Position numbers and translations under genes: made by a program. This document shows, piece after piece, positions 12,339 through 37,252 of a DNA stretch of 37,526 nucleotides (positions within the stretch are counted from its first letter, which is position 1; each line of letters starts with the position of its first letter). The notes beneath the pieces were generated by a model. The model was not told where the DNA came from. It saw only the letters and a program-made list of their open reading frames with translations, and ran no database searches. The DNA comes from Candidatus Aerophobota bacterium (lineage in GTDB: Bacteria; Aerophobota; Aerophobia; Aerophobales; AE-B3A): positions 1 through 37,526 of the forward strand of contig JAUVZN010000002.1 in the NCBI GenBank assembly GCA_030602545.1, given 5' to 3'.

Positions 12339-13835
12339 GTGGTGATGTACTATCCCGACGAGGCAAAGTTCAGAGAGCTCGCCAGAAAGGGTAATCTTAT
12401 CCCTGTTTATAAGGAGAGTCTGGCTGATCTAGAAACTCCGGTTTCCGCCTTTATGAAGCTAGGCCAGGGAAGTTTTTCTTATCTTCTGGAAAGTGTGGAG
12501 AAGGAGGAAGGGCTGGGAAGGTATTCATTCTTAGGGATCGATCCCTTTCTTCTTTTCGAATTCAGGGGAACAAAGGTTATCCTCCATGATACTCGGACCC
12601 ATGAAACTCTCTCGGCCAAGAGCGGACCCCTGGAGGTTTTGAAAGAAGTTATGGCCAGATACAAGGTAGTTAACCTGCCGGGTCTACCCCGTTTTTTTGG
12701 CGGAGCAGTGGGATATGTAGGGTATGATGTCATAAGATTTTGGGAAGATGTTCCTCGAGAGAACCCGGATGATTTGAATCTACCGGGCGCCCTCTTTATG
12801 TTTGCTAACATCTTGCTCATTTTTGATCACCGTGACCATAAAATAAAGGTGGTCTCCTATGTTTTTCTGGATGGCAGGAAGCCGCTTGGGAGAATTTATA
12901 AGCAGGCTATTAAGAAGATAGATGAAGTGATGGTTAAGCTAAAGAATTCCTCTCCTGTAGTAGATCTTGGAGAGGGATGTCCAGGAGGCAGCCGGATAGC
13001 AAAAGTTGTATCTAACCTAACCTCCTCTTCTTTTGAAGGGATAGTGATAAAAGCCAAGGAATATATCAGGGAGGGAGATATCTTTCAGGTGGTTTTATCC
13101 CAGAGACTGGCCAGAAAAATATTCACTTCCAGTTTCAATATATACCGAGCTCTGCGTTCTCTTAATCCCTCTCCTTATATGTACTATTTGAGGTGTGGGG
13201 ACTTTGAAATAGTGGGGTCTTCTCCAGAGATCCTGGTGAGAGTGGAAGAAGGGGATGTAACTCTTCGCCCCATTGCTGGAACCAGACACCGGGGAAAAAA
13301 TCAAAGTGATGATAAGGCTTTGGCTAAGGAACTTCTGGCGGATCCCAAGGAAAGGTCAGAGCATATCATGCTGGTAGATCTGGGTCGTAATGATGTGGGA
13401 AGAGTGTGCCGATATGGGACGGTTAAGGTTAGTGAACTAATGGTGGTTGAGAAGTATTCCCACGTGATGCATATAGTTTCTAATGTGAAAGGGAGACTCA
13501 AGCGGAATCTAGATCAATACGACCTTCTCAGAGCTTGCTTTCCTGCCGGAACGGTTTCCGGAGCCCCTAAAGTAAGGGCTATGGAGATCATTGAGGAGCT
13601 CGAATCTACCGCCCGGGGCCTCTATGCAGGAGCCCTGGGGTATTTCAGTTTTTCCGGAAATATGGATACCTGCATTATTATTCGAACTATAATCCTAAAA
13701 GATGGATTTGCCTATATTCAGGCAGGAGCAGGAATTGTAGCTGATTCTAATCCCCGGAGGGAATATCAGGAGACAATGAATAAAGCACAAGCCCTCATCA
13801 GAGCCATTGAGATGGCTGAAGAAGGGTTGGAATAG
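12339..13835 (+). CDS. trpE: anthranilate synthase component I
   Basis: 498-aa ORF with typical TrpE blocks: LLESVE, the PSPYMYY-type motif (NPSPYMYYL), IAGTRHRG, LLADPKERSEHIMLVDLGRND, GAPKVRAMEIIEELE and GIVADS. GGAGG lies at 12331-12335, so ATG 12345 is the likelier start than GTG 12339. Confidence 0.95.
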   Translation: MVMYYPDEAKFRELARKGNLIPVYKESLADLETPVSAFMKLGQGSFSYLLESVEKEEGLGRYSFLGIDPFLLFEFRGTKVILHDTRTHETLSAKSGPLEVLKEVMARYKVVNLPGLPRFFGGAVGYVGYDVIRFWEDVPRENPDDLNLPGALFMFANILLIFDHRDHKIKVVSYVFLDGRKPLGRIYKQAIKKIDEVMVKLKNSSPVVDLGEGCPGGSRIAKVVSNLTSSSFEGIVIKAKEYIREGDIFQVVLSQRLARKIFTSSFNIYRALRSLNPSPYMYYLRCGDFEIVGSSPEILVRVEEGDVTLRPIAGTRHRGKNQSDDKALAKELLADPKERSEHIMLVDLGRNDVGRVCRYGTVKVSELMVVEKYSHVMHIVSNVKGRLKRNLDQYDLLRACFPAGTVSGAPKVRAMEIIEELESTARGLYAGALGYFSFSGNMDTCIIIRTIILKDGFAYIQAGAGIVADSNPRREYQETMNKAQALIRAIEMAEEGLE

Positions 13836-13865
13836 AAAAGATATCCTCTTTGAGGAAGGTATAAA

Positions 13866-14438
13866 ATGATTCTGATTGTCGACAATTATGACTCCTTTGT
13901 ATATAATTTAGTCCAATATCTGGGGGAACTGGGACAGAAACTGGTAGTTTACCGAAATGACAAAATTACCCTGAGGCAGGCAAGGAGAAAGAAAATAGAA
14001 GCCATCGTCATCTCTCCCGGCCCGGGAAGACCGGAGAATGCTGGAGTTTCCAATGATATCATTCAGTACTTCTCTGGCCGGCTGCCCATCCTGGGAGTAT
14101 GCCTGGGTCATCAATGCATAGGACAGGTTTTTGGAGCAAGAATTGTCCATGCAAAACGCCTTGTGCATGGGAAAACCTCGCCTGTCTATCACTACGGAAA
14201 GGACATCTACAGGGGTATCGAGAATCCTTTTATAGCTACCAGATATCATTCTTTAATTATCAAAGAGAATAGCCTACCTGAGTGTCTTGTAAGATGTGCC
14301 TGGACCCAGGAAGGAGAGATTATGGGGATAAAGCATAAGGACCTGTCCGTCTTTGGAGTGCAGTTCCATCCAGAATCCATTCTGACCAAGGTGGGTAAAC
14401 AGGTACTCAAAAACTTTCTCGAAGTACAGGATTTATAG
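13866..14438 (+). CDS. trpG: anthranilate synthase component II (glutamine amidotransferase)
   Basis: 190-aa ORF starting MILIVDNYDSFVYNLVQYLGELG. The catalytic Cys is in GVCLGHQ and FGVQFHPES lies near the C-terminus. Confidence 0.95.
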   Translation: MILIVDNYDSFVYNLVQYLGELGQKLVVYRNDKITLRQARRKKIEAIVISPGPGRPENAGVSNDIIQYFSGRLPILGVCLGHQCIGQVFGARIVHAKRLVHGKTSPVYHYGKDIYRGIENPFIATRYHSLIIKENSLPECLVRCAWTQEGEIMGIKHKDLSVFGVQFHPESILTKVGKQVLKNFLEVQDL

Positions 14439-14481
14439 GTGTCCCGACGTCCTTCTTGATGAGATTTAAGGTGGTGCAGGC

Positions 14482-15492
14482 ATGATTAAAGAAGCTATCA
14501 ACAAAATAGTCGAAGGTTGCAGTTTAGGGGAAGAAGAGGCTGGACGCGTCATGGGAGAAATTATGGGGGGGAGAGCCACCCCCGCCCAGATAGCCTCTTT
14601 CTTAACAGCGCTAAGAATGAAGGGAGAGACGGTAAAGGAAATTACCGGCTGTGCCAGGGAGATGCTCAAGAGAGTTGACTCTTTTAATCTAAAAGAAGAT
14701 ATCTTGGTGGATACCTGTGGGACAGGAGGCGATAGAAGTGATACCTTTAATATTTCCACAGCTACCGCTTTTGTAGTAGCCGGGGCTGGTTTAACGGTGG
14801 CCAAGCATGGCAACAGAGCTCTCTCCAGTCGCTGTGGCAGTGCAGATGTACTGGAGACCCTGGGGGTTAAATTGGATCTACCAAAAGAAAAGGTAAAAGA
14901 GTGTCTTGGGAAAGTAGGAATAGGTTTTCTCTTTGCCCCTCTCTTCCATCGAGCTATGAAGCACGCCCTGGCTCCTCGCCAGGAGATGGGAATTAGAACT
15001 ATTTTTAATATCCTGGGTCCTCTTACCAATCCCCTGGGGGCAAATGTTCGTCTTATTGGTGTATACGATCCTTCTCTTACAGAGACTCTGGCTATGGTTC
15101 TGAAGAATTTAGGGGTGAGGGGTGCATTTGCTGTTTGTGGAGAGGATGGGCTGGATGAGATCAGCATTATGGGAAGAACCAGGACTACTCAACTTAAAGA
15201 TGGATTAATTGAAACTTATTATATAGAGCCCGAAGACTTTGGAATGAGAAGAGCTCCTTTGGAGGAGATAAAGGGAGGCAGCCGGGAGGAGAACGCCTTC
15301 ATTCTCCAGAGAGTGCTGGAAGGGGAAAAGGGACCAAAAAGAGATGTTGTTCTTCTCAATAGTGCTGCTTGTCTGGCAGCGGCAGGCCTGACCGGGGATC
15401 TAAAAGAGGGAATTAAGATTGCTGAGAATTCTATTGACTCAGGAATAGCCAGAGAGAAACTGGAGTTCTTGATTAGCTTTACCAATAATTAG
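14482..15492 (+). CDS. trpD: anthranilate phosphoribosyltransferase
   Basis: 336-aa ORF with DTCGTGGDRSDTFNISTA, KHGNRA and FNILGPLTNP. Confidence 0.95.
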   Translation: MIKEAINKIVEGCSLGEEEAGRVMGEIMGGRATPAQIASFLTALRMKGETVKEITGCAREMLKRVDSFNLKEDILVDTCGTGGDRSDTFNISTATAFVVAGAGLTVAKHGNRALSSRCGSADVLETLGVKLDLPKEKVKECLGKVGIGFLFAPLFHRAMKHALAPRQEMGIRTIFNILGPLTNPLGANVRLIGVYDPSLTETLAMVLKNLGVRGAFAVCGEDGLDEISIMGRTRTTQLKDGLIETYYIEPEDFGMRRAPLEEIKGGSREENAFILQRVLEGEKGPKRDVVLLNSAACLAAAGLTGDLKEGIKIAENSIDSGIAREKLEFLISFTNN

Positions 15493-15552
15493 GTACCAAA
15501 TCATTGATTGAGCTAAGAGATACAGCATGAGAAGAATAAAAAAGGATGAGCT

Positions 15553-16329
15553 TTGATTTTAACCCAGATATTGGATAATAAGCTAAAGGAAATTGCCCAG
15601 CGAAAAAAAAGGGTTCCTCTGCAAGCTCTAAAATCCAAAATAGCCGCCCTTGCCCCGACCAGGAATTTTAGGGAAGCTATATCCTCCCGAGCAGAAATTA
15701 ACATCGTTGCTGAGATTAAAAAAGCCTCTCCCTCAGTAGGTACCGTAACTCAGAATTATGATCCTGAGAAACTTTCCAGGATTTATGAGGAAAATGGCGC
15801 CTCAGCTATCTCTGTTTTGACCGACAAGAAATTCTTTGGAGGGGATTTAGGCGACCTGACCAAAGCTAAGAAAGTTAGCTCTTTGCCCATTCTGGCTAAG
15901 GAGTTTATACTGGATAAGTACCAGATTTATGAGGCCAGGCTTTTGGGAGCAGATGCTATTCTCTTAATTGCTCGTATATTAAGTAGGGAAAAACTAAAAA
16001 AATATTTGGATTTAGCCTCAAAGCTTGACCTGGAGTGTCTGGTTGAAATCCACGAAGAGAAGGAGTGGGAAAAAATTAAAGATCTTCCTCTGGATATAGT
16101 TGGCATTAACAATCGGAATCTGGCAAGCCTCAAGCTAGACATAGGAATGAGCTTTAATCTTATCAAAAAGATACCTTCGGATAAAATAATTGTCAGTGAG
16201 AGTGGAATTGATAGCCGAGAAGATATTCATAGACTAAGAGAGGCGGGGGTGGATGCCTTCTTAATAGGGGAGGCTCTCTTAAAAAGCAGGGATGTGGGAA
16301 GAAAACTGAGAGAACTTGTAGCAAGATAA
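15553..16329 (+). CDS. trpC: indole-3-glycerol phosphate synthase
   Basis: 258-aa ORF with a TTG start and AAGGA 6 nt upstream. It has ILxxILxxK, an N-terminus typical of the family, plus AEIKKASPS, ISVLTD, GINNRNL and ESGI. Confidence 0.9.
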   Translation: MILTQILDNKLKEIAQRKKRVPLQALKSKIAALAPTRNFREAISSRAEINIVAEIKKASPSVGTVTQNYDPEKLSRIYEENGASAISVLTDKKFFGGDLGDLTKAKKVSSLPILAKEFILDKYQIYEARLLGADAILLIARILSREKLKKYLDLASKLDLECLVEIHEEKEWEKIKDLPLDIVGINNRNLASLKLDIGMSFNLIKKIPSDKIIVSESGIDSREDIHRLREAGVDAFLIGEALLKSRDVGRKLRELVAR

Positions 16330-16342
16330 CCTCTTAAAAAAG

Positions 16343-16975
16343 ATGACCAGGATCAAAATTTGCGGAATAACCAACAAGGAGGATGCGTTTGAGGCAGCTC
16401 ATCTCGGAGTAGATGCCCTTGGTTTCGTATTTACTCATAGTCCAAGAAGGGTGACTCCCAGGATGGTTCAAGAGATTGCTCAGCTTCTTCCACCTTTTAT
16501 CTCTCGGGTGGGAATTTTTGTTAATGAGGACAAAGAAAAAGTAGAAAAAATAGCCAAAAGTTGCCATCTGACTACTCTACAATTTCATGGAGAAGAATCT
16601 CCTTCTTACTGTCAAGGATTTAGAGAAAAAATAGTCAAGGCTTTTTCCATCAAGGACACCTCTGTATTAGAAAAGATCCCTGAATATGAAGTAGATGCCT
16701 ACCTTCTTGATAGTTACTCTCCTTTAAGATATGGTGGGACAGGAAAAACTTTTGACTGGGATATTGCCAGAGAAATTAAGGAATTCGGAGTGCCTATTAT
16801 CCTCTCGGGAGGGCTAAATCCTGATAACGTTAAAGAAGCCATAGAAAGGGTTAGACCCTATGCAGTGGATGTTGGTAGTGGAGTAGAAGCAAGGGAAGGA
16901 AAGAAGGATCCAGAAAAACTCAAAGATTTTGTGAGGGCAGTGAGGGGGGCAAATGAACTATTCACGAGTGCCTGA
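16343..16975 (+). CDS. trpF: phosphoribosylanthranilate isomerase
   Basis: 210-aa ORF starting [10 protein letters not shown], then LQFHGEE and [10 protein letters not shown]. It overlaps trpB by 23 nt. Confidence 0.9.
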
Positions 16976-18158
16976 TAAAGAAGGACATTTTGGTCGTTTC
17001 GGGGGAAAATTTGTTCCCGAGACAGTTATGCCTGCTTTGAAGGAATTAGATGAAGCTTACCAAGAGGCAAAGAAAGATAAGCAGGGTTTTCAAAAAGAGC
17101 TGAGCGGGTATCTCAGGGATTATGCCGGCCGTCCCACTCCCCTTTTCCTGGCCAAAAGGTTAACCCATCACCTGGGAGGGACCAGAATTTATCTGAAAAG
17201 AGAGGACTTAGCCCACACCGGCTCCCACAAGATTAATAATACCCTGGGACAGGTCCTGTTGGCCAAAAAAATGGGCAAGACCAGAATTATTGCTGAAACA
17301 GGAGCTGGTCAGCATGGAGTGGCTACAGCTACGGCAGCAGCTTTCTTTGGTCTTCCCTGCCGGGTTTATATGGGGGAGGAAGATATGAGGCGCCAGCGCC
17401 TCAATGTCTTCAGAATGCAGCTTCAAGGAGCAGAGGTAATTCCTGTCACCTCGGGCACAGCTACCCTGAAAGATGCTATTAATGAAACCATAAGGGATTG
17501 GGTAACCAACATCCGGACTACTCACTATGTTTTAGGATCAGTGGTTGGTCCCCATCCTTACCCGGTGATGGTAAGGGATTTTCAATCGGTCATTGGCCGG
17601 GAAACCAAAAAGCAGATCCTCACCTCTGAGGGAAGACTTCCGGGGTATCTCATTGCCTGTGTGGGAGGGGGAAGTAACTCTATGGGTCTTTTCTACCCCT
17701 TTTTGGAAGATAAAGTTGAACTTATCGGAGTTGAGGCAGGAGGATGGGGGCTTTCTACCGGCAAGCATGGAGCGAGCTTGGCCAGAGGAACAGTGGGTGT
17801 TCTTCATGGGTCGAAAAGTCTTCTTCTACAGAATGAGGATGGGCAGATTGTAGCTACGCATTCTCTGGCGGCTGGCCTGGACTACCCCGGGGTAGGGCCA
17901 GAGCATGCTTATCTGAAGGAAACGGGAAGAGCCAGGTACGAAACGGTGACCGACAAGGAGGCTCTGGAGGCTTTTGAACTACTTTCCCGACTTGAGGGAA
18001 TCATTCCCGCGCTGGAAAGCGCTCATGCAGTGGCCTATGTCAAAAAGATTGCTCCTAAACTCGCCAAGGATGAAATTATGGTGATCAATCTTTCCGGCAG
18101 AGGTGATAAGGATGTGGAGCAGGCAGCTAGCATAATTTCCCATCCAGAAGGCAAGTGA
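16953..18158 (+). CDS. trpB: tryptophan synthase beta chain
   Basis: 401-aa ORF with HTGSHKINN (PLP lysine), [20 protein letters not shown] and LSGRGDKD. Confidence 0.97.
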
Positions 18159-18159
18159 G

Positions 18160-18957
18160 ATGACCCGGATAGAAGAAAAGCTCTATCAACTGAGAACCGA
18201 GGGTGAGAAGGCCTTCATTGCCTATCTGACAGCGGGATATCCGGATTTGGAGACTACCAGGGCCTTAATCCTGGAACTGGAGGCACGGGGAGTGGATGTG
18301 ATAGAATTAGGAATTCCCTTTTCTGATCCTCTCGCTGATGGACCTGTTATTCAAAAGTCCTCTCAATGGGCACTGGAGAAGGGGATAAGTTCAAGGAGAG
18401 TTTTGGAACTGGTGAGGAAGGTGCGTCAAAAGACACAGATTCCCCTGGTGCTAATGGGCTATTATAATCCCATCTTTAAATTTGGAGAAGCGGACTTTGT
18501 GAATGTTTCATCGGATGCAGGAGTTGATGGTCTGATAGTTGTTGATGTTCCCCCTGAGGAAGCTGGTCAGCTCAAAGCTGAGGCTGAGAGAAATAAACTG
18601 AATCTTATCTTCCTTCTTACCCCCGTTAGCTCTGAGGAGAGGATAAGATTAGTATGTGAGTGGAGCAGCGGCTTTATTTACTGTGTGTCCTATACAGGGG
18701 TTACCGGAGGGGGTGAGAAGGAGGAGGAGGCACTGGCGAGTTTAGTAAGGAAAGTAAGAACCCTTACCGCCACACCTGTGGAGATAGGATTTGGAATCTC
18801 ATCTCCCGATGATGCGAAAAGGGCATCCAGGATAGCTGACGGGATAATTGTAGGTAGTGCCATTATTAAAGAGATTGCATCTCATACCTCTCACCATAAT
18901 TTGGTTGGTAGGGTGGGGGAGGCGGTGGAGAAGCTAGTTAGAGCGACGAAAACATAA
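18160..18957 (+). CDS. trpA: tryptophan synthase alpha chain
   Basis: 265-aa ORF with ELGIPFSDPLADGPVIQ, YxNP, GVTG and VGSAI. The ATG lies 1 nt after the trpB stop. Confidence 0.95.
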   Translation: MTRIEEKLYQLRTEGEKAFIAYLTAGYPDLETTRALILELEARGVDVIELGIPFSDPLADGPVIQKSSQWALEKGISSRRVLELVRKVRQKTQIPLVLMGYYNPIFKFGEADFVNVSSDAGVDGLIVVDVPPEEAGQLKAEAERNKLNLIFLLTPVSSEERIRLVCEWSSGFIYCVSYTGVTGGGEKEEEALASLVRKVRTLTATPVEIGFGISSPDDAKRASRIADGIIVGSAIIKEIASHTSHHNLVGRVGEAVEKLVRATKT

Positions 18958-25883: not shown

Positions 25884-27104
25884 ATGGAAAACGAAGGTAA
25901 AGAGCGCGAAAAGCAGACAAACGTAAACTACTGGATCCAGGCTCTACTAGGCTGGGGCGTCGGTGATCTTGTATACCTGATTGCGAAACTAGCGAAAAAA
26001 GAGAAACCTACTCTCAGCGGGCTAGTTTCTTCTGGGATGGCAGGAAGTATAGGGATGCCGTTGGCAGTTTGGGGAATCCCCAAACTACTAGAGGTGCAGA
26101 GGCAGGCTCAAAGAAACTCTTCTTTCAGGCAGGTAGCAGTCCCTAGCTATGCCTCGATGCTAGCGAGTAGTGCTCCCGTAGAGAAGACAACTTCCCGGGT
26201 GAAAATACCCCCATTCTGCCCACCAGCAACGCCGAGAACTCACGAAGTGAAGCACACTAATCCCAAACAGTATCCCTGGCTCGATATTCTTCCTCCGGGT
26301 TCTGTAACCTTGATCATAGGAAAACCTGGAAGCGGAAAAAGCGCTCTGGGCTATTTTCTCTTGGAAAGACTTCATTATCGAACTAGCTGCTATGTGGTCA
26401 ATTTACCTAAGAGAGCTCATCGAAACCTCCCTCTTTGGCTAGGAGTAGTTGAAAGCTTAGAGGAAGCTCCACTTGATGCTGCTCTTCTCGTAGATGAGGG
26501 AGCTTTACAGTTCTCGGCACGGATGAGCGCTAGCGAGAAAAACCGGAGACTCCTCGAGGCTATCTCATTGGCAAGACAGAGAAATCAAATCATCATCTTC
26601 ATCGCTCAGGAGGCAAGCTACATAGATATCAATATCGTACGGGGCCTGACTACCCTCATCGTAAAAGAGCCAGCCCCCCTGCAGATGCTCCTTGAGCGAG
26701 TTGAGCTAAAGCAGTTTATTCAGAGAGCGAAAGGAGAGTTCGAAAGAATAGAGGAAGATAAAAGATGCTGGGCCTACATCGCGTTCAGTCCCGGTGGCTA
26801 TCAGGGGATAGTACGGGTAGCTAAGCCAGACTTTTTCTCTGATGCTCTCAGCAAGTGCTACGCTCTTCCCGATCAAGAGACCGAGGACAAAGGAGGCCAC
26901 ACGTTATCAAAAGAGGAAAAGAAGAAGAAAGCCTACGAGTGGTATAGAGAAGACCATCTATCCGTGAGAAAAATTGCTCCGCGCTTAGGGGTGAGCAAAT
27001 CTACCGTGTCCAACTGGATTAAGGAGGAGAAAGAGACAAGAAAAAGGATGCATGACTTTATCACCAGACTAAGGATCCGGGCAGGGACATACATGGAAAA
27101 GTAG
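25884..27104 (+). CDS. membrane-anchored Zot-like P-loop NTPase with a C-terminal helix-turn-helix
   Basis: 406-aa ORF with AGGAGG upstream. Two N-terminal hydrophobic segments are present (YWIQALLGWGVGDLVYLIA; LVSSGMAGSIGMPLAVWGI). Walker A is GKPGSGKS (aa 146-153) and Walker B is LLVDEG (aa 201-206), followed by RQRNQIIIFIAQEASYIDINIVR, as in Zot/phage-assembly-type ATPases. The C-terminal SVRKIAPRLGVSKSTVSNWIKE is a classic HTH. Confidence 0.7.
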   Translation: MENEGKEREKQTNVNYWIQALLGWGVGDLVYLIAKLAKKEKPTLSGLVSSGMAGSIGMPLAVWGIPKLLEVQRQAQRNSSFRQVAVPSYASMLASSAPVEKTTSRVKIPPFCPPATPRTHEVKHTNPKQYPWLDILPPGSVTLIIGKPGSGKSALGYFLLERLHYRTSCYVVNLPKRAHRNLPLWLGVVESLEEAPLDAALLVDEGALQFSARMSASEKNRRLLEAISLARQRNQIIIFIAQEASYIDINIVRGLTTLIVKEPAPLQMLLERVELKQFIQRAKGEFERIEEDKRCWAYIAFSPGGYQGIVRVAKPDFFSDALSKCYALPDQETEDKGGHTLSKEEKKKKAYEWYREDHLSVRKIAPRLGVSKSTVSNWIKEEKETRKRMHDFITRLRIRAGTYMEK

Positions 27105-28212: not shown

Positions 28213-29181
28213 ATGTTTAGGAGAACTCTCGTCAATTTGATTCTGGTGCCGGCAATGCTCCTGACCCTGGGGGTGAGCCTGATCAGCGCCGCCCCGGTGG
28301 GGGAGGAGGTCCGAGGCAGCGGCCCTGGCTTTGGATCACCTTTTGGCATCGCTGTGGAGTCCGATGGCAGTCTGGTGGTGCTAGATTATGGTCTCGAGGC
28401 ACTGGTGCGTGTTGACCCGATCAGCGGGGAGCGCACTATCCTTTCCGATGCCAGCACCGGCCCTGGCCCTGCGTTTAAAGCACCTCGGGGCATTGCCGTA
28501 GAATCCGATGGCAGTCTGGTGGTGGTAGATTATGGTCTCGGTGCACTGGTGCGTGTTGACCCGATCAGCGGGGAGCGCACTATCCTTTCCGATGACAGCA
28601 CCGGCCCTGGCCCTGGCTTTGGATCACCTCGGGACATCGCCGTGGAGTCCGATGGCACTCTGGTGGTGACAGATCCTGGTCTCGGTGCACTGGTGCGTGT
28701 TGACCCGGTGAGTGGGGAGCGCACTATCCTTTCCGATGACAGCACCGGCCCTGGCCCTGGCTTTAAAACACCTTTCGGCATCGCTGTAGAATCCGATGGC
28801 AGTCTGGTGGTGGTAGATCGTGGTCTCGAGGCACTGGTGCGTGTTGACCCGGTCAGTGGTGAGCGCACTATCCTTTCCGGTGGCCCTGGCCCTGGCTTTG
28901 GAGAACCTCGGGGCATCGCCGTAGAATCCGATGGCAGTCTGGTGGTGACAGATGCTGGTCTCGAGGCACTGGTGCGTGTTGACCCGGCCAGCGGTGAGCG
29001 CACTATCCTTTCCGGTGGCCCTGGCCCTGGCTTTGGAGAACCTCGGGGCATCGCTGTAGAGTCCGATGGCAGTCTGGTGGTGGTAGATGATGGTCTCGAG
29101 GCACTGGTGCGTGTTGACCCGGTCAGTGGGGAGCGCACTATCGTTTCCGATGCCAGCACCGGGCGGTGGACTGGACTTTGA
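28213..29181 (+). CDS. secreted NHL-like beta-propeller repeat protein; the last blade is displaced by a 1-nt frameshift, so the coding sequence probably extends to 29266
   Basis: GGAGGG lies upstream and a signal peptide is present (LILVPAMLLTLGVSLISA). Seven copies of GPGxGFxxPxGIAVESDGSLVVxDxGLxALVRVDPxSGERTILS follow. An eighth copy (GGGLDFEAAFGIAVESDEQFEVIDPGLEAISGSS*) reads in the +1 frame from 29162 to TGA 29264-66. Confidence 0.8.
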   Translation: MFRRTLVNLILVPAMLLTLGVSLISAAPVGEEVRGSGPGFGSPFGIAVESDGSLVVLDYGLEALVRVDPISGERTILSDASTGPGPAFKAPRGIAVESDGSLVVVDYGLGALVRVDPISGERTILSDDSTGPGPGFGSPRDIAVESDGTLVVTDPGLGALVRVDPVSGERTILSDDSTGPGPGFKTPFGIAVESDGSLVVVDRGLEALVRVDPVSGERTILSGGPGPGFGEPRGIAVESDGSLVVTDAGLEALVRVDPASGERTILSGGPGPGFGEPRGIAVESDGSLVVVDDGLEALVRVDPVSGERTIVSDASTGRWTGL

Positions 29182-29266
29182 AGCAGCTTTTGGCATCGCC
29201 GTAGAGTCCGATGAGCAGTTCGAGGTAATAGATCCCGGTCTTGAGGCGATCTCAGGAAGTAGTTGA
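28318..29266 (+). repeat. near-identical coding tandem repeats with periods of 144, 144, 144, 135 and 135 bp
   Basis: The marker ACTGGTGCGTGTTGACCCG recurs at 28401, 28545, 28689, 28833, 28968 and 29103. Long stretches between copies are identical at the nucleotide level. Confidence 0.9.
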
Positions 29267-29406
29267 GGAGAGGGAATGAATTTTAAAGGTCTCAGGCCCG
29301 CTGTATTCGCCAAGTAATACGGTGGTCTCATTTAGACAGCCTGACAAAGTCATGCCTCCCTATCAATACAAAGGAGAGCCACTGAGCACAAGAGAAAGCA
29401 GATAGA

Positions 29407-30044
29407 CTAGCTAATACCTCTTAGAATATCAAGGAACCGGTTCTGTTTGATCCGGGTCAGGGGCTCATCGAAACATGGGAGGGGCTTGTCTAAACCCAGG
29501 AGGGAGAGATTCCTCTTGTTTTCAGGATCACCGGGTCTGGCGGCGTCTACGCCAGTCTGTGGGAGCAGCCCCGTGCTGAGCTTTCGTACCTGAGCTACCA
29601 GGCTGATTTCCCCCAGTTGAAAAACTTTGGCAGCGGGCCTGACCACCGCTCCTTTCATGTTTGACCGTACCCCGGTGGATGTCGTTGTTCTGGAAGGCCT
29701 CGGGGTACGGCACTGAAGATCCGGTTCTTTTTCAGACAAGGGGTATGCTCCCTTGCTTCTCTCAAATCACGATGTCCTGAAGGCACCAATCTTGACAAAC
29801 GGGGCATGGTTATCCTCATCGCCAGCCTAAGCCACTCTCTCCTAAAGAATTCACCCAAGCCTATTGGCCGGTAAGTCCTTAGTTTGCTTTCCTGGATCAT
29901 AAGTCTTTTTCCGGTTAATCGCACCAAAAAGTGCAATCTCGGCCAGGGCCCTGCAAAGAGATTGGCAGGTGCTGATGCTGCACTTTTTATGAGAGAGATA
30001 GGCCTTGAAGCTGGATTGGAGACATTCATAATCGCTCTGTTCAT
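29407..30044 (-). pseudogene. unidentified gene apparently split by a frameshift (ORFs 29655..30044 and 29407..29739)
   Basis: Two minus-strand ORFs in different frames overlap by 85 nt. No motif recognised, so coding status is uncertain. Confidence 0.2.
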
Positions 30045-30117
30045 AATTGCTGGTGTTAAGGTCGCTTCAATAATCTCGAACTGGCTACAATGGGTGAAAT
30101 TATGAATGGAATAATAA

Positions 30118-30362
30118 TTGTATCCAATCGGAATAATCCATTGGCGTTATGAAGAAACTGAAGACACTCCTGTCCAGGGAACTCATGTGAGCAACTTTAA
30201 AGGTGGAGGAGGTAAAACTACCAGAGCAGTTAACCTCTCTCGCGTTTTAGCCCCTAGACTCAAGGCATTTCCGTGGTAGATTGCGAGTCTTGGGGGCAGT
30301 GTAACAAGCTCCGCTCCGTAAATTTCAGATACAGTAGATCTATGAAAATCATTTTCTGGTAA
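30118..30362 (+). pseudogene. ParA/Soj-type partition ATPase remnant (N-terminal ~60 aa only, frameshifted)
   Basis: Frame 1 reads THVSNFKGGGGKTTRAVNLSRVLAPRLKAFPW*, which carries the deviant Walker A K-G-G-x-G-K-T-T. Frame 2 continues VVDCESWGQ... (compare VLxIDxDPQG) and stops at 30360-62. The rest of ParA is missing. Confidence 0.5.
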
Positions 30363-30376
30363 GTTTAAACTGCTAT

Positions 30377-31315
30377 TTAAGATGGAAACCGAAACTCGTG
30401 GCTGCCCGCCGACCGGCGTAGGTGCAACAGGGACTTGAGTAGATTCCCCTTGACATCGGGCACTTCATCGGGAGTTGCGGCCAATATTGGCAATTGATTT
30501 GTCCGATCAAGAAAAAGCTGACGTATCTCCCTAGGGATGTGATGTTTGGAGACGACAAAAACATAGTAGAAGCCACCAATGAACATCGTGTAGGAAATGT
30601 GTCCGTCGCGCGTTCTAACTCGTCGAGGACTTAGCCAAAACCTTCTGAGCTGTTCGTTGCTCGCCAGGTCGTTGGGATCGAATATGATTACGGTCATGAA
30701 ACAGCCGTAGTCATCCTCCGCCCCGGAGTCCTCGTCCAGTATCATTCTTCTCATTGTTTCTTGGTGACGACGGCCAAGTCTGACTTCGCTGAACTGCTTC
30801 AGCTTGGAGACACTCATGCGCCATAGCAGGGACATCTGAAAGAGCTTGAATTTGTCATACTCAACGTTCTCATATAGGACAACTCTAGTCCGGACCGACT
30901 TCACTTGCTCTGACTTTCCTGGGCTATATATGACCCAGCGGGCGTATCCTTCCCATTTGGATATGCGGTTCTCACAATCACCGCACAGAAGCTTCTCTTT
31001 CAATCCCTTCTGTCTTAGCTCGAGCTCCCCCATTCCCTCATCCGTCCTTTTCACTATTGTAAATCGCTGTTTGCCGTCGTAGAGGCCGCTGCATTCATAT
31101 ATGAACTCAGGAATTATGTGGGAGTCCTTCAGTTCCCGTTCCTTCAAGCAGAGTTTGCATTTCATGGCTGAACCCTTCCACACAGTTAGGAGTGACGCAA
31201 CGATGATCACAGTCCGCCAGATTATCCCACAGAAGAAAGGCAAGCGAAAGAGTAAGGTGGTCTGGTAGCCACTAGAACCAAGTCTGCTACGGAGGCTCCT
31301 CGTGGCCCGCTCCAT
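30377..31315 (-). CDS. double-CxxC (zinc-ribbon / possibly HNH-like) protein of unknown function
   Basis: The listed ORF is 312 aa. An internal ATG at 31165 (MKCKLCLKE..., 262 aa) is preceded by GGAAGGG. The longer form would add a basic N-terminus and one TM segment (FFCGIIWRTVIIVASLLTVW). Motifs are C53-x2-C56, DSHIIPEF and C111-G-D-C114-E-N-R. Confidence 0.65.
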   Translation of the reverse strand: MERATRSLRSRLGSSGYQTTLLFRLPFFCGIIWRTVIIVASLLTVWKGSAMKCKLCLKERELKDSHIIPEFIYECSGLYDGKQRFTIVKRTDEGMGELELRQKGLKEKLLCGDCENRISKWEGYARWVIYSPGKSEQVKSVRTRVVLYENVEYDKFKLFQMSLLWRMSVSKLKQFSEVRLGRRHQETMRRMILDEDSGAEDDYGCFMTVIIFDPNDLASNEQLRRFWLSPRRVRTRDGHISYTMFIGGFYYVFVVSKHHIPREIRQLFLDRTNQLPILAATPDEVPDVKGNLLKSLLHLRRSAGSHEFRFPS

Positions 31316-31535: not shown

Positions 31536-34500
31536 CTATGCCGATTGCTGTGCAAGCCGCCCCAGCTCGTCCGCGCTCGGGCAACCCAGTCGGGCCAGGT
31601 GATTGCAGAGGAGCCGCAGCTGAGGACGCGGGACGGTGGAATCAACAAGACTCCGGACCAACTGCTCCACTTCTCTGCAATGTAGAAAGGGTTCGTGAGC
31701 ATTTGAAAGGAGATGTTGAAGCAGGCGAGTTAATGGCTCCGGATACTTGCGAGCGAACTTCTTTTCCACGAGTTCATAGTAAAGCTGGGTGTGCTTGAGA
31801 TCGGGAGCGGAGGTGGCGCAGATTTTCTCCACCACTACCGGAAAAATCGGCTCGAGTGGGAGGATCCATAGCAGCATTTCCGCCTTTTCAGCTTCACTGA
31901 GTAGCAAGGGAACCCCTGTGTTTCGCTGCGACCAATAATCATCCATCCAACGGCGCCACAAGTCTTGTATAGATTGCTTATTCACACCAAGAAGTTGGGA
32001 ACCTATGCTAGAGGCCCAGCTTTTGTGACTGCCTGGGTCGGCTTCCAACAGAAATTGCTGCAACCAGCCGTCGCTCATGGGGTTGCTTGAGCTATACAGT
32101 GCAATACTCGCAAGGTGCTCACAGAAACGCTCACGCTTACTCAAGAGCTCGCTCGATAATTTGGGAAAAGCCTGCTCGTAGAGGGGTAACAGGTTGGGGA
32201 GGAGTGCTTCGTGCCATCGTCCCCAGTCAAGATATCCGTGCCAGGCCTGTTGAGCCTGTCTTTCATCCCCGGACCAATCAAGCAAAGGTAGGATTTTCTC
32301 TCGGCACCACTCAGCATCTAGAGCAAACAAGAAGCGGAGTTGACTCGCCAGCAGTACTCGTCCCAGTTCAGCTGTAGAGGACGTGCCGGAAATTGCTTTC
32401 TCAAAGTACTGTTTGTATTTCATGGGAAGACCCCTCCACCTTTGCCCAGTCTGAGCGTGTCTCTTTGAAAGTGCGCGTAGCCAGAACTCCACAGTCTTAC
32501 CTCCCGGATGATTGATAGCTCTTAATAGCCAGTCCTGCGTCTCAAGATCTTCCTCGTTCAAAAGGTTTTTGGCACACGCGTCAAAGAGTTTACCAGCAAG
32601 GTTTTCGGCCAATGACAAACAGGACAACGGAATCACGCCGTGTTCCCTGCTGATTCCCTGTTCTAGAAGTTCTGCTACAGAATGTGGAAACCTCAGGAGC
32701 TCTCCGCGATGCGTAACCAGATTGAGGACTCTCCTCCATTGATTCTTTGTCAATGGAGTCTTCTGCCAACCACTCAAGACACTTCCCCAGATATCCGACC
32801 TCCACTCCCTTCTTTTCGCGAGAGCCACCACAAGCTGCCAGCTCCACCTGAAAGACTGGCCTGCTGCGTTCGTGATTGCAATTAAAAGGCCTTCTCGGTC
32901 TGGCCCGGCAAACTCATCTCCTTGATATGTGAGGAGCCAACCAACCTCCTCATCCGGATTCTTATTCAGTAGCTCTTCAACGGTCACTGGACTTCGCGTC
33001 CCCTCCCACTCGACAGTCCAGGTACGAAAATCGAGACGGTCCGGTGGCCTGAAATCGGGATGGGCTTCCTCCATTGCTTTGAGCCGGTCTGCAGCCAAGG
33101 AGCAACTAGGTGCTGCGCGACACAGCCAAACGAAGAGGTTGTATGCCCGCTTTTCACGTCTCCTCCTGCCAAGGGCCTTCGCATCCGGTCCCACCGGACC
33201 ACGGTCAATGCGTTTCAGAAGACGCGTTCGGGCTGGTCTGCTAGCATTTGCATAAACCTGAGCCAGGAGGCGAAAGACCTCGTGTTTCAGATGAGAGACA
33301 TATAAATAGTCGTTGTCCAGGAGCCAGCCGATCTTTTCATCTGAATCCATTTGCGGACTTTCGGTAACGCCATGAATAGCAAGTCTTTTCAGCAGTGGAA
33401 CGCCAGAGGTACTCCATGCCTCAATTGCTGCACGAGCCCGGCCAGGCTCCTGCTGAAGCATCCATTCAATGAGGTCGCGAGCCGCATCAATAACCAGGTC
33501 TAGTTTGTCGCCGTAGCGGTCTTGTTCGTGGAGCTCTATCGCCGAACGAAGGAAGCTTACCGGATCCGAGTGCTCGGTAGCCTGACCCATAGCGCGGAAG
33601 GAAAAGTGAGCTTTGATTAGATGGTTGGTCAGAAGAGGTTCTAGTTCCTGATAGAAATGGGCAAAATTAGGTCGAAAAATGACTTCCCATGACCGCTTCA
33701 GCAAGTGCTCGTCCCCCTCAACAACAATGTCTGCGTCAACCTTTTGCGTCTGCGAGCCACTTTCATCAGGTAAGCTAAAGTGAGACCTCAGTTTCAAGTG
33801 TGGCCTACTGAGATATTCAAAGAGTAAGAGAGCCGTGATTTTGTCCTCTGGGTATTGACAATGCTCAAGAACATAACCCAGCAGACGTAGTGGCTGGTTC
33901 GACGGTTCACCCCTGAGCAAGACTGTGACCCACCTTGCACGAGTACATGGATCAGTACGCGGCTTACCAAAGGCCAGTATGTGAGCAATCGCTCTCTGAA
34001 GGGCCGGGTTAAGCTGTTGTCCTTGGCGCTCAACAAGGGCCAAAGCATCGTCAGGATATTTGCATGCGAAGTTTTGTGCAAACCAGGTCGCTAGCACTTC
34101 GACCTTTTCATCTACGGGCTCATTCGGTTGAAAGAGCTTTCGAAGTATACCTTTACTTTCTACCCAACGTAGCCATTCCGGAGTGTGTGAGTAGCGCGCA
34201 AAAAATCGGAGAGTTACCAAATCCGTTAGAGCACCCTCAATGTAATCAGCAGTCTCTTTGTCGAGCGGCGGAGTCGATCTGACAATGTCCCTAATCTGCT
34301 GCTCGTGATCCAGCGCTCCCATTTTGCTAAGCCTGACCCAAGCAGCGAGGGCTTTAGTTAGTGCCCTATGTCTGTTAGGTTCATCGCTCGGGCGGTAAGG
34401 GACGGGGACAATCCCAAGGAACTTCCAGCGTTCATCTTGTCCTGACGGTGTGAATGCATAGCGGGAAGTCTTTGGCACCAGACCACGTGCCAGATACCCC

Positions 34501-35111
34501 ATGACTGGGTCGTCGTGACTGTACCCTACGAAAACGACCGTATATTTGGCGAACATGTCATACAAGAAGCGAGTCGCCCAGCCCTCGGTAAGATAGGCCC
34601 GACCGAAGTCGGCATCTGTCAGAACGAGACTTTGCGCCCCCTTGTCTACGAAACCGTGCAAATACACAAGCCCATTGAATTCCCGACCAAGGGGGAGTGC
34701 CGGTCCGCAGTAGACCTCCAGGTCCTCCTTGAAGAGCTTCTGAGCCACGATTGAGAAGTGTCTGTCGAAGTTCGTCGTAACAACACGAACTGTGGCGGGC
34801 GATTGGAAAAGCGACAATATGGAATAGTGCAGCCGGGTAGCCTTTGAGCCAGGGTCACTAATCATCTTCCAAGCTCTACGATGAACCAGGACACCCCTTT
34901 CCGCCTCTAACCTACCTAGGAACCGATCGAGCGGCTCGTCTTTTGCGGGTACTAAAGCTCCTGCCGCTACTTGCATCGCCAATTGCTCGAAATCCGGTAA
35001 GTTTGAAGGTGGGCCAATAGAAATGCCTGCACCTGCAAAGACCACCAGCTCTTGATTTCTTTGGGCATCTATGAGAGATTGTGGAAGGTCGACACTCTCT
35101 GTGATCCGCAC
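31536..35111 (-). CDS. large SIR2-domain protein: N-terminal SIR2_2-type NADase-like domain plus a ~930-aa helical C-terminal region (DSR-like defence candidate)
   Basis: 1191-aa ORF with a GTG start and GGGGG 9 nt upstream. The ordered SIR2_2 hallmarks are VVFAGAGIS (aa 23-31), VVTTNFD (Asn114), LVYLHG (His152), LVLTDADF and VVFVGYSHDD. No Walker A/B motif is present. The remainder is Trp/Leu-rich and predicted helical. Confidence 0.85.
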   Translation of the reverse strand: MRITESVDLPQSLIDAQRNQELVVFAGAGISIGPPSNLPDFEQLAMQVAAGALVPAKDEPLDRFLGRLEAERGVLVHRRAWKMISDPGSKATRLHYSILSLFQSPATVRVVTTNFDRHFSIVAQKLFKEDLEVYCGPALPLGREFNGLVYLHGFVDKGAQSLVLTDADFGRAYLTEGWATRFLYDMFAKYTVVFVGYSHDDPVMGYLARGLVPKTSRYAFTPSGQDERWKFLGIVPVPYRPSDEPNRHRALTKALAAWVRLSKMGALDHEQQIRDIVRSTPPLDKETADYIEGALTDLVTLRFFARYSHTPEWLRWVESKGILRKLFQPNEPVDEKVEVLATWFAQNFACKYPDDALALVERQGQQLNPALQRAIAHILAFGKPRTDPCTRARWVTVLLRGEPSNQPLRLLGYVLEHCQYPEDKITALLLFEYLSRPHLKLRSHFSLPDESGSQTQKVDADIVVEGDEHLLKRSWEVIFRPNFAHFYQELEPLLTNHLIKAHFSFRAMGQATEHSDPVSFLRSAIELHEQDRYGDKLDLVIDAARDLIEWMLQQEPGRARAAIEAWSTSGVPLLKRLAIHGVTESPQMDSDEKIGWLLDNDYLYVSHLKHEVFRLLAQVYANASRPARTRLLKRIDRGPVGPDAKALGRRRREKRAYNLFVWLCRAAPSCSLAADRLKAMEEAHPDFRPPDRLDFRTWTVEWEGTRSPVTVEELLNKNPDEEVGWLLTYQGDEFAGPDREGLLIAITNAAGQSFRWSWQLVVALAKRREWRSDIWGSVLSGWQKTPLTKNQWRRVLNLVTHRGELLRFPHSVAELLEQGISREHGVIPLSCLSLAENLAGKLFDACAKNLLNEEDLETQDWLLRAINHPGGKTVEFWLRALSKRHAQTGQRWRGLPMKYKQYFEKAISGTSSTAELGRVLLASQLRFLFALDAEWCREKILPLLDWSGDERQAQQAWHGYLDWGRWHEALLPNLLPLYEQAFPKLSSELLSKRERFCEHLASIALYSSSNPMSDGWLQQFLLEADPGSHKSWASSIGSQLLGVNKQSIQDLWRRWMDDYWSQRNTGVPLLLSEAEKAEMLLWILPLEPIFPVVVEKICATSAPDLKHTQLYYELVEKKFARKYPEPLTRLLQHLLSNAHEPFLHCREVEQLVRSLVDSTVPRPQLRLLCNHLARLGCPSADELGRLAQQSA

Positions 35112-35582
35112 TCGTGATCACCCCCCTTCGTCTAAATCCGAGCCTCATATAGCTCCATCAGGACGTGTCCCGCGATAGTACCTGAGATAACGTGCACAAA
35201 TGCCAGAACGCCCCTTGTTCGGAATGGGGTGTCTTAGAATTCGTTCTGCAAAGCCATCTTATGTGGTGCAGAATTGTGTCTTGTTTTTGCCCTGCTGAGG
35301 GAGGATTTTTGCAGCTTGAGTGGGAGTAAGAAGGATTGTCCTTTTGAGAGCAGAACGTATTCTCTTAGAGTGACCGGTTCGTTTCCAGTCAGACGTCTGC
35401 AGATCGGGCTGTGCAACCCAGACTTGACCTCGAGTACATGGTAGCATACTCCAGCCCTGTGTCAAACTTCGCTGCCTCGCAAAAGTTGCTGCAATTAAAT
35501 ATGTATAGTGCCACATGACCTCTTGCTATGATGTAAGAGAAACGTAGTATAGTGAGTAAGAAGCGACAGGAGGTCATAAACA

Positions 35583-36451
35583 ATGATCGTATCCAGCAGC
35601 CAGCAAAAGATTCACCTTGAGGAACGGCTGAGAGCGAAGACAATGGAGCAGATGTTCTTGGGATCCATCCAGGAAGGAGCTAACTGTCCGCCCTTGTTGC
35701 TCGGGCAATCCTGGATGTTGCAAAGTCCACCTTCAACCTCGGGGATGTAGGCAATGAGGACTTCAAAAAGATAAAACCCGGACAAATGAAGGTGATCGGG
35801 GTCTCCGCCTCGGAGCCGGCCGGAAAACCCCTGAAAGAGTGCCTCCTCGCAGAGGCGGTGATTACCCTCGACGGCGGAATAGAGGATCAGGCAACTCGTA
35901 TCGCTGGTGGCAAGAGCGGAGTTACAGCCCTTCGCCGAAAAAGACTCCTTCGTATTACCACCGAAGCACTGGAGCAGGATGTCCTTCTTACCCGGGAAGA
36001 TATCGCCTACAGGATTCTCAACTGCGGTGTACGCACCGCGACCCGTGATGTCAAGTACTTTCAGAAGCAAGACATTCATGTTCCCCTCAGAGGATGGTAT
36101 AAGGATATTGGTCCCACCATCACCCACAAAACTCAAGTTGTGGAGCACTTCATCAAACGGATTCAGCCTTCGGAAATTGGACGTAGGACCTACCATTCAC
36201 TGAAGGCGGTGGAGCGATACATTCTCCACTTTGCCAAGGTAGCCTATCTTACGTCTCAGTATGAGAGCAGTCTCTCATACTGAGAGATAGCCTTCCTGGT
36301 TGGCATCTGTGAGAGACTAGTCAAAGAGTATCAGAGTCTCTACCAGAGGTATAACAACTCTACCTATAGAGAGCGTCTCAGAGAGATTACCTCGCTAGCT
36401 CACGATTCCTCCCCCCCTCTCAAAGACAAAAAAGGGGGGAAACTCCCGTGA
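35583..36451 (+). pseudogene. DUF1670-type gene, disrupted by an N-terminal frameshift and an in-frame TGA
   Basis: ATG 35583 has AGGAGG 9 nt upstream. That frame stops at 35750, and the homologous continuation (ALVARAILDVAKSTF...PGQMKVIGVSASEPAGKPL...) is in the next frame from 35684. The core LLTREDIAYRILNCGVRTATRDVKYF...PLRGWYKDIGPTITHK...IGRRTYHSLKAVERYILHF matches my memory of DUF1670. After TGA 36281-83 the same frame continues EIAFLVGICERLVKEYQSLYQRY to 36451. Confidence 0.6.
36254..36285. repeat. perfect 14-bp inverted repeat with a 4-nt loop, containing the in-frame TGA of the first DUF1670 gene
   Basis: TCTCAGTATGAGAG (36254-67), loop CAGT, then CTCTCATACTGAGA (36272-85). Confidence 0.9.
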
Positions 36452-37252
36452 AACAAGACTGGCGAACTACCTACTACCGGCCAATGATGGGGAAGAGTTT
36501 TGAGGCTGCACTGACTCAGTTCGTCACCCGAGAGTTCCCGTTCCTTCAGGGAACTATGGTGGTGAGCCTTTTTGTCAAAGAGCTGAGAAGACTGGTTGAA
36601 GCCTATTATCCACCCACCTCGTATCTGAGGCCAGGGCAGATGATCTGGCTGGCAGTGAATAAGAATGAGAAACTGGGGTACAAGAAATCAATCACCGAAA
36701 CCAAAACAAAGCCTGTAGTTTTAACGATTCTTCATCCGGACGATATCTCGAAATACCTGAATGGTGTACTTCTAGGTGATATTAGACGCGATGCCTGGGT
36801 ACGCCTTTTCCAAGAGGCAGAGGAGCAAGGCGCAGTTCTCTCCGAGATCGATGTAGCTACCATCTCCAAGGTATGTCCAACTCTTGTATCCAGGCGCATT
36901 AGAGCTTACGAGAAGGAGCAGAGGACTATGGTACCTCGTAGGGGTACCATTCATGATCTGGGCCGAAGCGTTAGTCACAAAGCAACTATTTGCAGAAAGA
37001 AACTCACTGAGAACAAAAGCACCTCACAAATAGCCCAGGAGACCCATCATACTCCCGAAGCAGTAGACAGGTATCTCAAAGGACTCTCTCAGGTTGTCGA
37101 TCTGCACCAAAAGAGGAATGATCATCAAAGATATCTCGTTTGTCACCTCGATGAGTAACGGACTGGTTAAACAGTACGTGAAGCTGGCAAAGAGTCTTAA
37201 ACCAGACGACAGAGATTCTCTAAAACAGGCTCCCCAGGAGGAAGAAACTTGA
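36448..37252 (+). pseudogene. second DUF1670-type gene, frameshifted near its 3' end
   Basis: Its GTG start overlaps the upstream frame's stop (GTGA). The core is PGQMIWLAVNKNEKLGY..., GAVLSEIDVATISKVCPTLVSRRIRAYEKEQRTMVPRRGTIHDLGRSVSHK and IAQETHHTPEAVDRYLKG. The listed ORF stops at 37158. The conserved tail (GMIIKDISFVTSMSNGLVKQYVKLAKSL...) reads in another frame from 37118 to TGA 37250-52. Confidence 0.6.

Follow-up and report, generated by a model that had tools for sequence, protein, structure and literature searches.

A divergent Dsr1-like SIR2 protein with a long, predicted helical sensor in a Candidatus Aerophobota contig

The sequence considered here, referred to as the window, is the whole 37,526-nucleotide stretch of contig JAUVZN010000002.1 (positions 1 to 37,526 of the forward strand; assembly GCA_030602545.1) from a Candidatus Aerophobota bacterium. 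Its minus strand carries a gene for a 1191-residue protein, in which an N-terminal SIR2-type domain, predicted to hydrolyze nicotinamide adenine dinucleotide (NAD+) and hence termed an NADase, is followed by a long helical region. An earlier note on this DNA had proposed a single-gene, NAD+-depleting defence sirtuin that has a helical sensor but lacks a STAND NTPase, and this central reading was supported by the analysis described here. Judged by its sequence, the protein belongs, as a divergent member, to the Dsr1 family in its broad sense, and does not represent a new kind of system. The gene, the features within and just upstream of it, and its downstream neighbor are:

31536..35111, minus strand: full coding sequence of the Dsr1-family member, 1191 residues, GTG start, stop codon at 31536-31538
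34377..35111, minus strand: SIR2-type NADase domain, residues ~1-245, supported by Pfam, the predicted fold, Foldseek and a profile search of the PDB
34437-34784, minus strand: Pfam SIR2_2 (PF13289) match, residues 110-225, E = 2.4e-15, above the gathering score
34770..34772, minus strand: codon of Asn114 (in TTNFD), predicted to be catalytic, invariant column
34656..34658, minus strand: codon of His152 (in YLHG), predicted to be catalytic, invariant column
Residues 23-31: SIR2 motif VVFAGAGIS
Residues 110-116: SIR2 motif VVTTNFD, containing N114
Residues 148-153: SIR2 motif LVYLHG, containing H152
Residues 162-169: SIR2 motif LVLTDADF
Residues 192-201: SIR2 motif VVFVGYSHDD
31539..34367, minus strand: all-helical sensor, residues ~249-1191, from the AlphaFold2 model, with a predicted local distance difference test score (pLDDT) mostly above 90
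33720-33803, minus strand: beta-hairpin within the sensor, residues 437-464, from the AlphaFold2 model
Residues 861-881, 957-978 and 1052-1063: three Trp-rich helices quoted in the earlier note
31602..32069, minus strand: Pfam DUF4020 (PF13212) match, residues 1015-1170, E = 2.1e-9, covering the C-terminal portion of the sensor
35118..35128, minus strand: Shine-Dalgarno-like AAGGGGGGTGA, 7-17 nucleotides 5′ of the GTG start, from the sequence
35438..35465, minus strand: sigma-70-like promoter match, TTGACA-16-TACCAT with TG, ~330 nucleotides upstream, a consensus match only
30377..31165, minus strand: gene for a 262-residue orphan protein, 370 bp downstream of the Dsr1-like gene and co-directional with it

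In the open reading frame (ORF) listing of the window, 31536..35111 is a single unbroken minus-strand frame of 1191 residues, a length that matches that of full-length homologues (1170-1210 residues), and the same protein recurs identically on an independent 5.1-kb assembly contig (Logan). The GTG start is credible, because the M1 column is nearly invariant among 113 aligned relatives and AAGGGGGGTGA lies upstream. The promoter match agrees with the consensus at 10 of 12 positions, with weak support, as the promoter and terminator scan returned 8 sites, compared with 4.1 ± 2.3 in shuffled sequence. All eight peptides quoted in the earlier note were located at the implied positions of the protein, and its description of the C-terminus as Trp- and Leu-rich and helical was borne out (Trp makes up 3.4% and Leu 14.7% of residues 260-1191, which are almost entirely helical in the model). 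The same applies to the reported lack of a P-loop: the Walker A pattern [GA]xxxxGK[ST] is absent, and no NTPase family was matched in Pfam or PADLOC. An Avs/STAND receptor was rejected on these grounds.

The family assignment was derived from protein family models, from pairwise alignments, and from a comparison of profiles. The Pfam and PADLOC searches that had been suggested for the protein returned both SIR2_2 and DUF4020, together with three Dsr1 models of PADLOC (PDLC04167, 3.6e-83; PDLC02183, 7.7e-73; PDLC04166, 5.6e-28), which jointly span residues 3-330 and 523-969; these matches were judged by E-value rather than by the coverage thresholds of each model. The NCBIfam Dsr1 model NF041818 was matched with E = 2.8e-100, with its best stretch at residues 433-1139. 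The earlier note had been undecided between DSR1 and DSR2, and the choice is now clear, since SIR2_2, DUF4020 and the three PADLOC Dsr1 models were all found, with no Dsr2 match. In tblastn searches, residues 3-1137 to 3-1141 aligned with dsr1 genes annotated by the Prokaryotic Genome Annotation Pipeline (PGAP), with 26-27% identity, and BLASTP against the Dsr1 of an E. coli plasmid gave 32% identity in the SIR2 domain and 23% over residues 524-1020. A profile of the 113-member clade was aligned by hhalign with a curated reference, consisting of PGAP-named Dsr1 genes from five proteobacterial plasmids, with a probability of 100%, E = 2.4e-84, and 1105 collinear columns, running from clade-profile positions 7-1143 against curated-profile positions 2-1237. 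This alignment includes the stretch 292-523, which was left unmatched by BLAST. The window protein is thus a homologue of Dsr1 over its full length, and sits in a separate and deeply diverged clade of the family.

The E. coli-type Dsr1 (NF041818; EcDsr1 is WP_029488749.1 according to PMC13581612) has the same order of parts as the window protein, namely a SIR2_2 NADase, a helical sensor and a DUF4020 end, and the GAGxS, TTNFD and YLHG motifs are common to both. Both are also encoded by one gene and lack an NTPase, and a location on mobile or variable DNA may be a further common trait. They differ in that the window protein is ~70 residues shorter (1191 compared with ~1263-1282 residues), and in that its clade is distributed mainly among environmental bacteria (Acidobacteriota, Chloroflexota, Gemmatimonadota, Firmicutes, and others), apart from the E. 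coli-type proteins.

The active site was examined in the 113-sequence alignment. Residues T112, T113, N114, D116, H118, H152 and G153 were found to be invariant, and the glycine-rich GAGxS loop nearly so. The earlier note had equated Asn114 and His152 with the catalytic residues of DSR2, and a profile search of PDB sequences indeed aligned them with DSR2 N133 and H171, the latter being the residue that is mutated in the deposited “DSR2 H171A” structures. In the profile alignment with curated Dsr1, N114 and H152 correspond to the invariant N127 and H166. Conservation of the catalytic Asn and His had also been named as a point on which the earlier proposal could fail, and neither residue varies in the 113 relatives. 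In the AlphaFold2 model, the residues up to ~245 form strands alternating with helices, consistent with a Rossmann-type fold. The top Foldseek matches were the SIR2 NADases DSR2, KomC, ThsA and Avs5, with template modelling (TM) scores of 0.59-0.69 for SIR2-only chains of DSR2 and KomC and 0.38-0.42 for full-length ThsA chains, and a PDB profile search with the clade alignment matched the SIR2 domains of KomC, ThsA and DSR2. Because the active site is invariant, we strongly infer that the effector of the 1191-residue protein has SIR2 NADase chemistry.

The C-terminal region was also modelled with confidence. AlphaFold2, run on the 113-relative alignment, gave a mean pLDDT of 89.2 for the whole protein and a predicted TM score (pTM) of 0.76, and the DUF4020 match near the C-terminus scored 37.8 bits, against a gathering cut-off of 22.7. 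When residues 290-1191, the sensor without the SIR2 domain, were used for an exhaustive search, 2738 clusters (50% identity) were recovered at E ≤ 1e-3, 969 of which reach E ≤ 1e-30. It had been suggested that this C-terminal sensor might be new. It is not, because it is homologous to the curated Dsr1 sensor from end to end, with which it is collinear, and has at least 2738 clusters of relatives at 50% identity. Among the best 150 matches of the sensor-only search, the sensor begins at about residue 285-340 in those of complete length. Several matches of ~920-1040 residues carry a complete sensor that begins only 27-132 residues into the protein, without a full SIR2 domain (P0019, P0246, P0250, P0261, P0284, P0290, P0298, P0336, and others). 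These short proteins could be truncated gene calls or fragments, or could have a different effector or none.

Several characterized systems resemble the window protein in part. DSR2 of Bacillus subtilis (PDB 8K98, 8WY8, and others) is built on the same plan, with a SIR2 NADase followed by a large helical-repeat sensor of a phage structural protein, but it senses the tail tube protein and has no DUF4020. ThsA, the effector of type I Thoeris, and KomC/HAM-SIR2 have a related SIR2 NADase domain (PDB profile search, E = 5e-6 to 6e-4; Foldseek TM scores of ~0.4-0.65 on the SIR2 domain of the window protein), but their activation depends on a small-molecule signal or on partner proteins, and they do not possess a 940-residue helical sensor. 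Membership of the ThsA family was rejected, as the PADLOC ThsA matches were marginal (E = 0.0016), like those of the other SIR2 models. The sensor of Avs7 was seen by electron cryo-microscopy as a bilobed helical-repeat domain around an HK97-fold capsid protein (SeAvs7, PDB 9N00, 9N01 and 9YIX; PMC13581612), and Dsr1 and Avs7 were reported to share this homologous bilobed sensor, which envelops the HK97-fold major capsid protein (PMC13581612). The sensor of the window protein is homologous to that of Dsr1, which is itself reported to be homologous to that of Avs7, and the likeness to Avs7 is drawn through Dsr1 alone. The two proteins differ in their effectors: Avs7 combines a STAND NTPase with a Cap4 nuclease and forms tetramers with EF-Tu, whereas the window protein has a SIR2 effector and no P-loop.

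Experimental studies of other family members provide a basis for a proposed mechanism. DSR1 was shown to protect B. subtilis from phage phi29, with a transient NAD+ depletion and without collapse of the culture (10.1101/2021.12.14.472415), and phages that carry NARP1 overcome DSR1 by rebuilding NAD+ (10.1101/2024.02.11.579819). Among phage ZL19 genes, only that for the major capsid protein activated EcDsr1 (PMC13581612, 2026), and the toxicity of EcDsr1 was lost upon disruption of its NADase domain (PMC13581612). As a whole, the window protein is probably best explained as a self-contained anti-phage sensor-effector of the Dsr1 type. The region from residue ~249 to residue 1191, ending in DUF4020, would serve as the receptor and, judging from its homology to E. 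coli Dsr1 and to the sensor of Avs7, would most likely wrap around a phage structural protein. On the same grounds, the trigger would probably be HK97-fold major capsid protein newly made during infection. Binding of this ligand would relieve the autoinhibition of the N-terminal SIR2 domain, which would then hydrolyze NAD+ to ADP-ribose and nicotinamide by means of Asn114 and His152. The loss of NAD+ would halt phage replication, either through a transient depletion or through abortive infection. That capsid protein is the trigger in the clade of the window protein, as this homology suggests, is given just under an even chance; it is held less firmly than the NADase chemistry, because the identity to the tested protein is only ~25%.

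Homologues of the protein are numerous and widely scattered. At least 1531 were found in a large protein database, and nearly all of the 120 homologues listed are 1160-1216 residues long and carry SIR2_2, most of them together with DUF4020; the closest of those listed is 78% identical. This number of homologues, together with the Pfam E-values, goes well beyond what chance would give. Relatives occur in at least 440 GTDB species from many phyla, including Acidobacteriota, Chloroflexota, Gemmatimonadota, Proteobacteria, Firmicutes, Planctomycetota, Verrucomicrobiota and Actinomycetota, and just one full-length copy was found on viral contigs. The closest relatives come from the whole-genome shotgun set SDBS01, which is cited in three papers on deep-sea and marine sediment metagenomes. 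When eight neighbors of the gene in the window were searched by tblastn in 83, and then 92, homologue loci, none was found to recur. The window protein is predicted to act alone, as no partner gene is conserved and an NTPase domain is lacking.

The 78% and 62% identical relatives lie in unrelated contexts, the latter among methyltransferases and an ABC transporter. The former adjoins an integrase fragment, a giant SACS-domain protein, SLFN_AlbA_2, and the methylase of a type I restriction-modification (R-M) system, and the following genes were located in its neighborhood (coordinates are those of the homologue loci L084 and L085):

L084 4762-6249 and L085 5212-6699: 495-residue protein with no Pfam match, directly downstream of the 78% relative
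L084 6400-10746: 1448-residue SACS-domain protein, downstream of the 78% relative and followed by the SLFN_AlbA_2 and type I R-M methylase genes

This context resembles a defence island that includes further unannotated genes. Across the homologue loci, 137 ORFs within 4 kb of a homologue matched 144 PADLOC families (E ≤ 1e-10), compared with 150 ORFs and 43 families at a distance of 6.5-10 kb, a crude comparison that used mechanical ORF calls and redundant families and involved no formal enrichment test, and in which the distant ORFs may still fall inside islands. Matches near the homologues include DrmA, DrmD and DrmMI of DISARM, type I and type IIG R-M systems, and BrxH of BREX. Crude as it is, the comparison supports the view that the homologues often adjoin defence genes.

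Several observations weigh against the interpretation of the window protein as a Dsr1-type anti-phage sensor-effector, or at least against the transfer of the capsid trigger to it. Its score on NF041818 (336.8 bits) is far below the equivalog cut-off of 1400 bits, as are those of three relatives from the clade (313-337 bits for proteins 78%, 47% and 40% identical to the query), whereas the PGAP-annotated Dsr1 of an E. coli plasmid reaches 1674.1 bits. By this measure, the protein falls outside the equivalogs of the E. coli-type Dsr1, from which the finding on the trigger comes, and the identity to that type (~25-27%) is low enough to allow a different ligand specificity. NADase activity, an anti-phage phenotype and a trigger are ascribed to the window protein by homology, from the literature on other family members. 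In a PDB set without Dsr1 or Avs7 structures, a single-sequence search for solved relatives of the sensor gave nothing significant, and the profile search gave SIR2 domains only. Ten ORFs of the window, including both flanks of the gene, contained no other PADLOC defence gene, and the crudeness of the neighborhood comparison has already been noted. The alternative that draws most on these points, and which is considered unlikely though far from negligible, retains the Dsr1-type NADase but proposes that the sensor of the divergent clade sees another phage component, or that NAD+ depletion is only transient and non-abortive. Candidates for the alternative component are a different structural protein and a complex of nucleic acid with protein, and the environmental clade below the Dsr1 cut-off may sense a phage protein other than capsid. 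The divergence from PGAP-annotated Dsr1 favors this alternative, as do the derivation of the published trigger from one E. coli protein and one phage gene library, and the transient depletion without culture collapse seen for the DSR1 tested in B. subtilis, which indicates that behavior varies within the family. On the other hand, the sensor is collinear with curated Dsr1 throughout, and capsid protein was the trigger for both sensor-bearing proteins tested, SeAvs7 and EcDsr1, despite their different effectors (PMC13581612).

The other alternatives depart further from a self-contained Dsr1-type sensor-effector, and are given very little weight. DSR2 chains head the Foldseek list (E = 1e-8 to 1e-5; alignments of ~1170-1280 columns), as would be expected of a DSR2-type protein that senses the phage tail tube protein, but these matches have global TM scores of only 0.19-0.25 and ~12% identity. 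DSR2 ranks at the top because it is the sole solved protein in which a SIR2 domain is followed by a long helical-repeat region. In the PDB profile search, sequence similarity to DSR2 is limited to SIR2 residues 6-199, no Dsr2 model of PADLOC or NCBIfam matches the query, and the C-terminus is accounted for by DUF4020 and the Dsr1 models. DSR2 was therefore rejected as the identity of the protein and is regarded as an architectural analogue, with no sequence similarity outside the SIR2 domain. The possibility that the gene encodes a housekeeping NAD-dependent protein deacylase with no role in defence is just as improbable. It derives from the names that NCBI gives to two homologues (“SIR2 family NAD-dependent protein deacylase” or “NAD-dependent protein deacetylase”), but the Pfam match is to SIR2_2 (PF13289), with the canonical SIR2 family (PF02146) absent among matches at E ≤ 1, and no deacylase model of NCBIfam was matched. 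The nearest solved relatives are the defence NADases KomC, ThsA, DSR2 and Avs5, and a 940-residue sensor, a patchy distribution across phyla and a variable genomic context are ill-suited to a housekeeping enzyme. Hardly any credence is given to a two-gene system, in which the Dsr1-like protein would work together with the co-directional 262-residue orphan. The two genes share a strand, no terminator-like site separates them, and both are present on the independent contig, but tblastn placed the orphan beside no other fetched homologue locus than the duplicate contig of the window. In addition, the 78% relative carries a different downstream gene, and homologues of the orphan have no Dsr1 neighbor in the five contexts examined.

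With the protein placed in the Dsr1 family, the value of the result for the 1191-residue gene lies mainly in annotation, and no new mechanism is opened by it. The Dsr1-like clade is a very large and mostly environmental one that is under-annotated, its members being named “hypothetical”, “DUF4020 domain-containing”, or even “protein deacylase”, and it scores under the NCBI equivalog cut-off despite end-to-end homology to Dsr1 and an intact catalytic site. If the capsid sensing of EcDsr1 holds for the clade, its members would form a natural series of capsid receptors, in which one scaffold is matched to varied phage capsids. The less-charted item at the locus is the neighboring orphan gene.

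The orphan was 312 residues long (30377-31315) in the ORF listing and 262 residues long on the independent contig, and the latter length was adopted. It matches no family in Pfam, PADLOC or NCBIfam, and three PHROGs families of no assigned function (best E = 2e-30). A total of 134 homologues of ~230-280 residues were found, which share a nearly invariant CxxC...SHIIPEF...CxxCE signature. The AlphaFold2 model of the orphan is confident (pLDDT 90.2, pTM 0.88); it has no meaningful match in the PDB (best E = 0.048), and one match to an uncharacterized myovirus protein, with a TM score of 0.64. Of the five contexts inspected for homologues of the orphan, four have defence genes as neighbors, including SIR2-HerA, nSTAND3, a caspase-family peptidase, SMODS, restriction enzymes, a KAP NTPase, a PLD nuclease and GmrSD; the fifth context contains Hypoth_Ymh and a ParE toxin-antitoxin pair. 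These findings make the orphan a reasonable candidate for an undescribed defence gene. A more tentative and rather doubtful extension is that the locus is a two-gene mini defence island, whose second gene belongs to an unrecognized, nuclease-like family that acts against phages as a single gene or is carried by them.

The surroundings of the Dsr1-like gene in the window differ from those described in the earlier note, which had placed it among plasmid and insertion sequence (IS) debris, in a block of raised GC content, and had taken this as a typical defence-island context. No such debris was found beside the gene when the flanking and gap ORFs were searched against Pfam, PHROGs and NCBIfam. 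The GC content of the gene (0.525, compared with a window mean of 0.478) lies inside the range of the other genes (0.40-0.61), close to that of the thioesterase gene (0.532) and the Asp-Al permease gene (0.521), and GC was rejected as a sign of foreign origin, being within the spread of the housekeeping genes of the window. With both arguments failing, the defence-island context within the window is left unsupported. A search for island boundaries returned no tRNA and no Rfam family, and the repeats that were found are short, imperfect and consistent with chance. Elsewhere the window has the appearance of ordinary chromosome, with genes for a thioesterase, an Na+/H+ exchanger, a beta-lactamase-family protein, a permease, an aminotransferase, the trp operon (12339-18957), oxidoreductases and tctCAB. 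Nearer to the Dsr1-like gene are an AAA+/helix-turn-helix (HTH) protein, an NHL-repeat protein, the orphan, and two DUF1670 proteins. The minor features of the window are:

6085-6798, minus strand: IS110-type remnant, a 237-residue ORF in which only the C-terminal Transposase_20 domain was matched
25884-27104, plus strand: 406-residue AAA+/HTH protein, between tctB and the NHL-repeat gene
28213-29181, plus strand: NHL-repeat (beta-propeller) protein with a hydrophobic N-terminus
29182-30376: gap of 1.2 kb without a recognizable gene
35786-36283 and 36448-37158, plus strand: two tandem DUF1670 genes, just upstream of the Dsr1-like gene

The ORF at 6085-6798, which is probably an IS remnant, is the sole transposase-like sequence found in the window, and lies 25 kb from the Dsr1-like gene. 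Within the 1.2-kb gap, ORFs of 73-129 residues gave no Pfam match, and blastn against a plasmid collection returned nothing. The two DUF1670 proteins share 30% identity in an alignment of 108 residues; the first, whose match is confined to positions 43-196 of the 220-position profile, may be truncated. Neither has a match in PADLOC, PHROGs or NCBIfam, and no mention of DUF1670 was found in the literature searched. The 406-residue protein has a weak match to P-loop ATPases (Zot, AAA_22 and AAA_16, at residues ~140-250) and a C-terminal HTH_23 domain, which weakly resembles the HTH domains of transposases and small terminase subunits; the protein may be a regulator from a mobile element. The NHL-repeat gene has the highest GC content of the 25 window genes measured (0.613), and is composed of six tandem DNA repeats of 135-144 nucleotides that are 86-90% identical, which suggests recent homogenization or expansion of the repeats.

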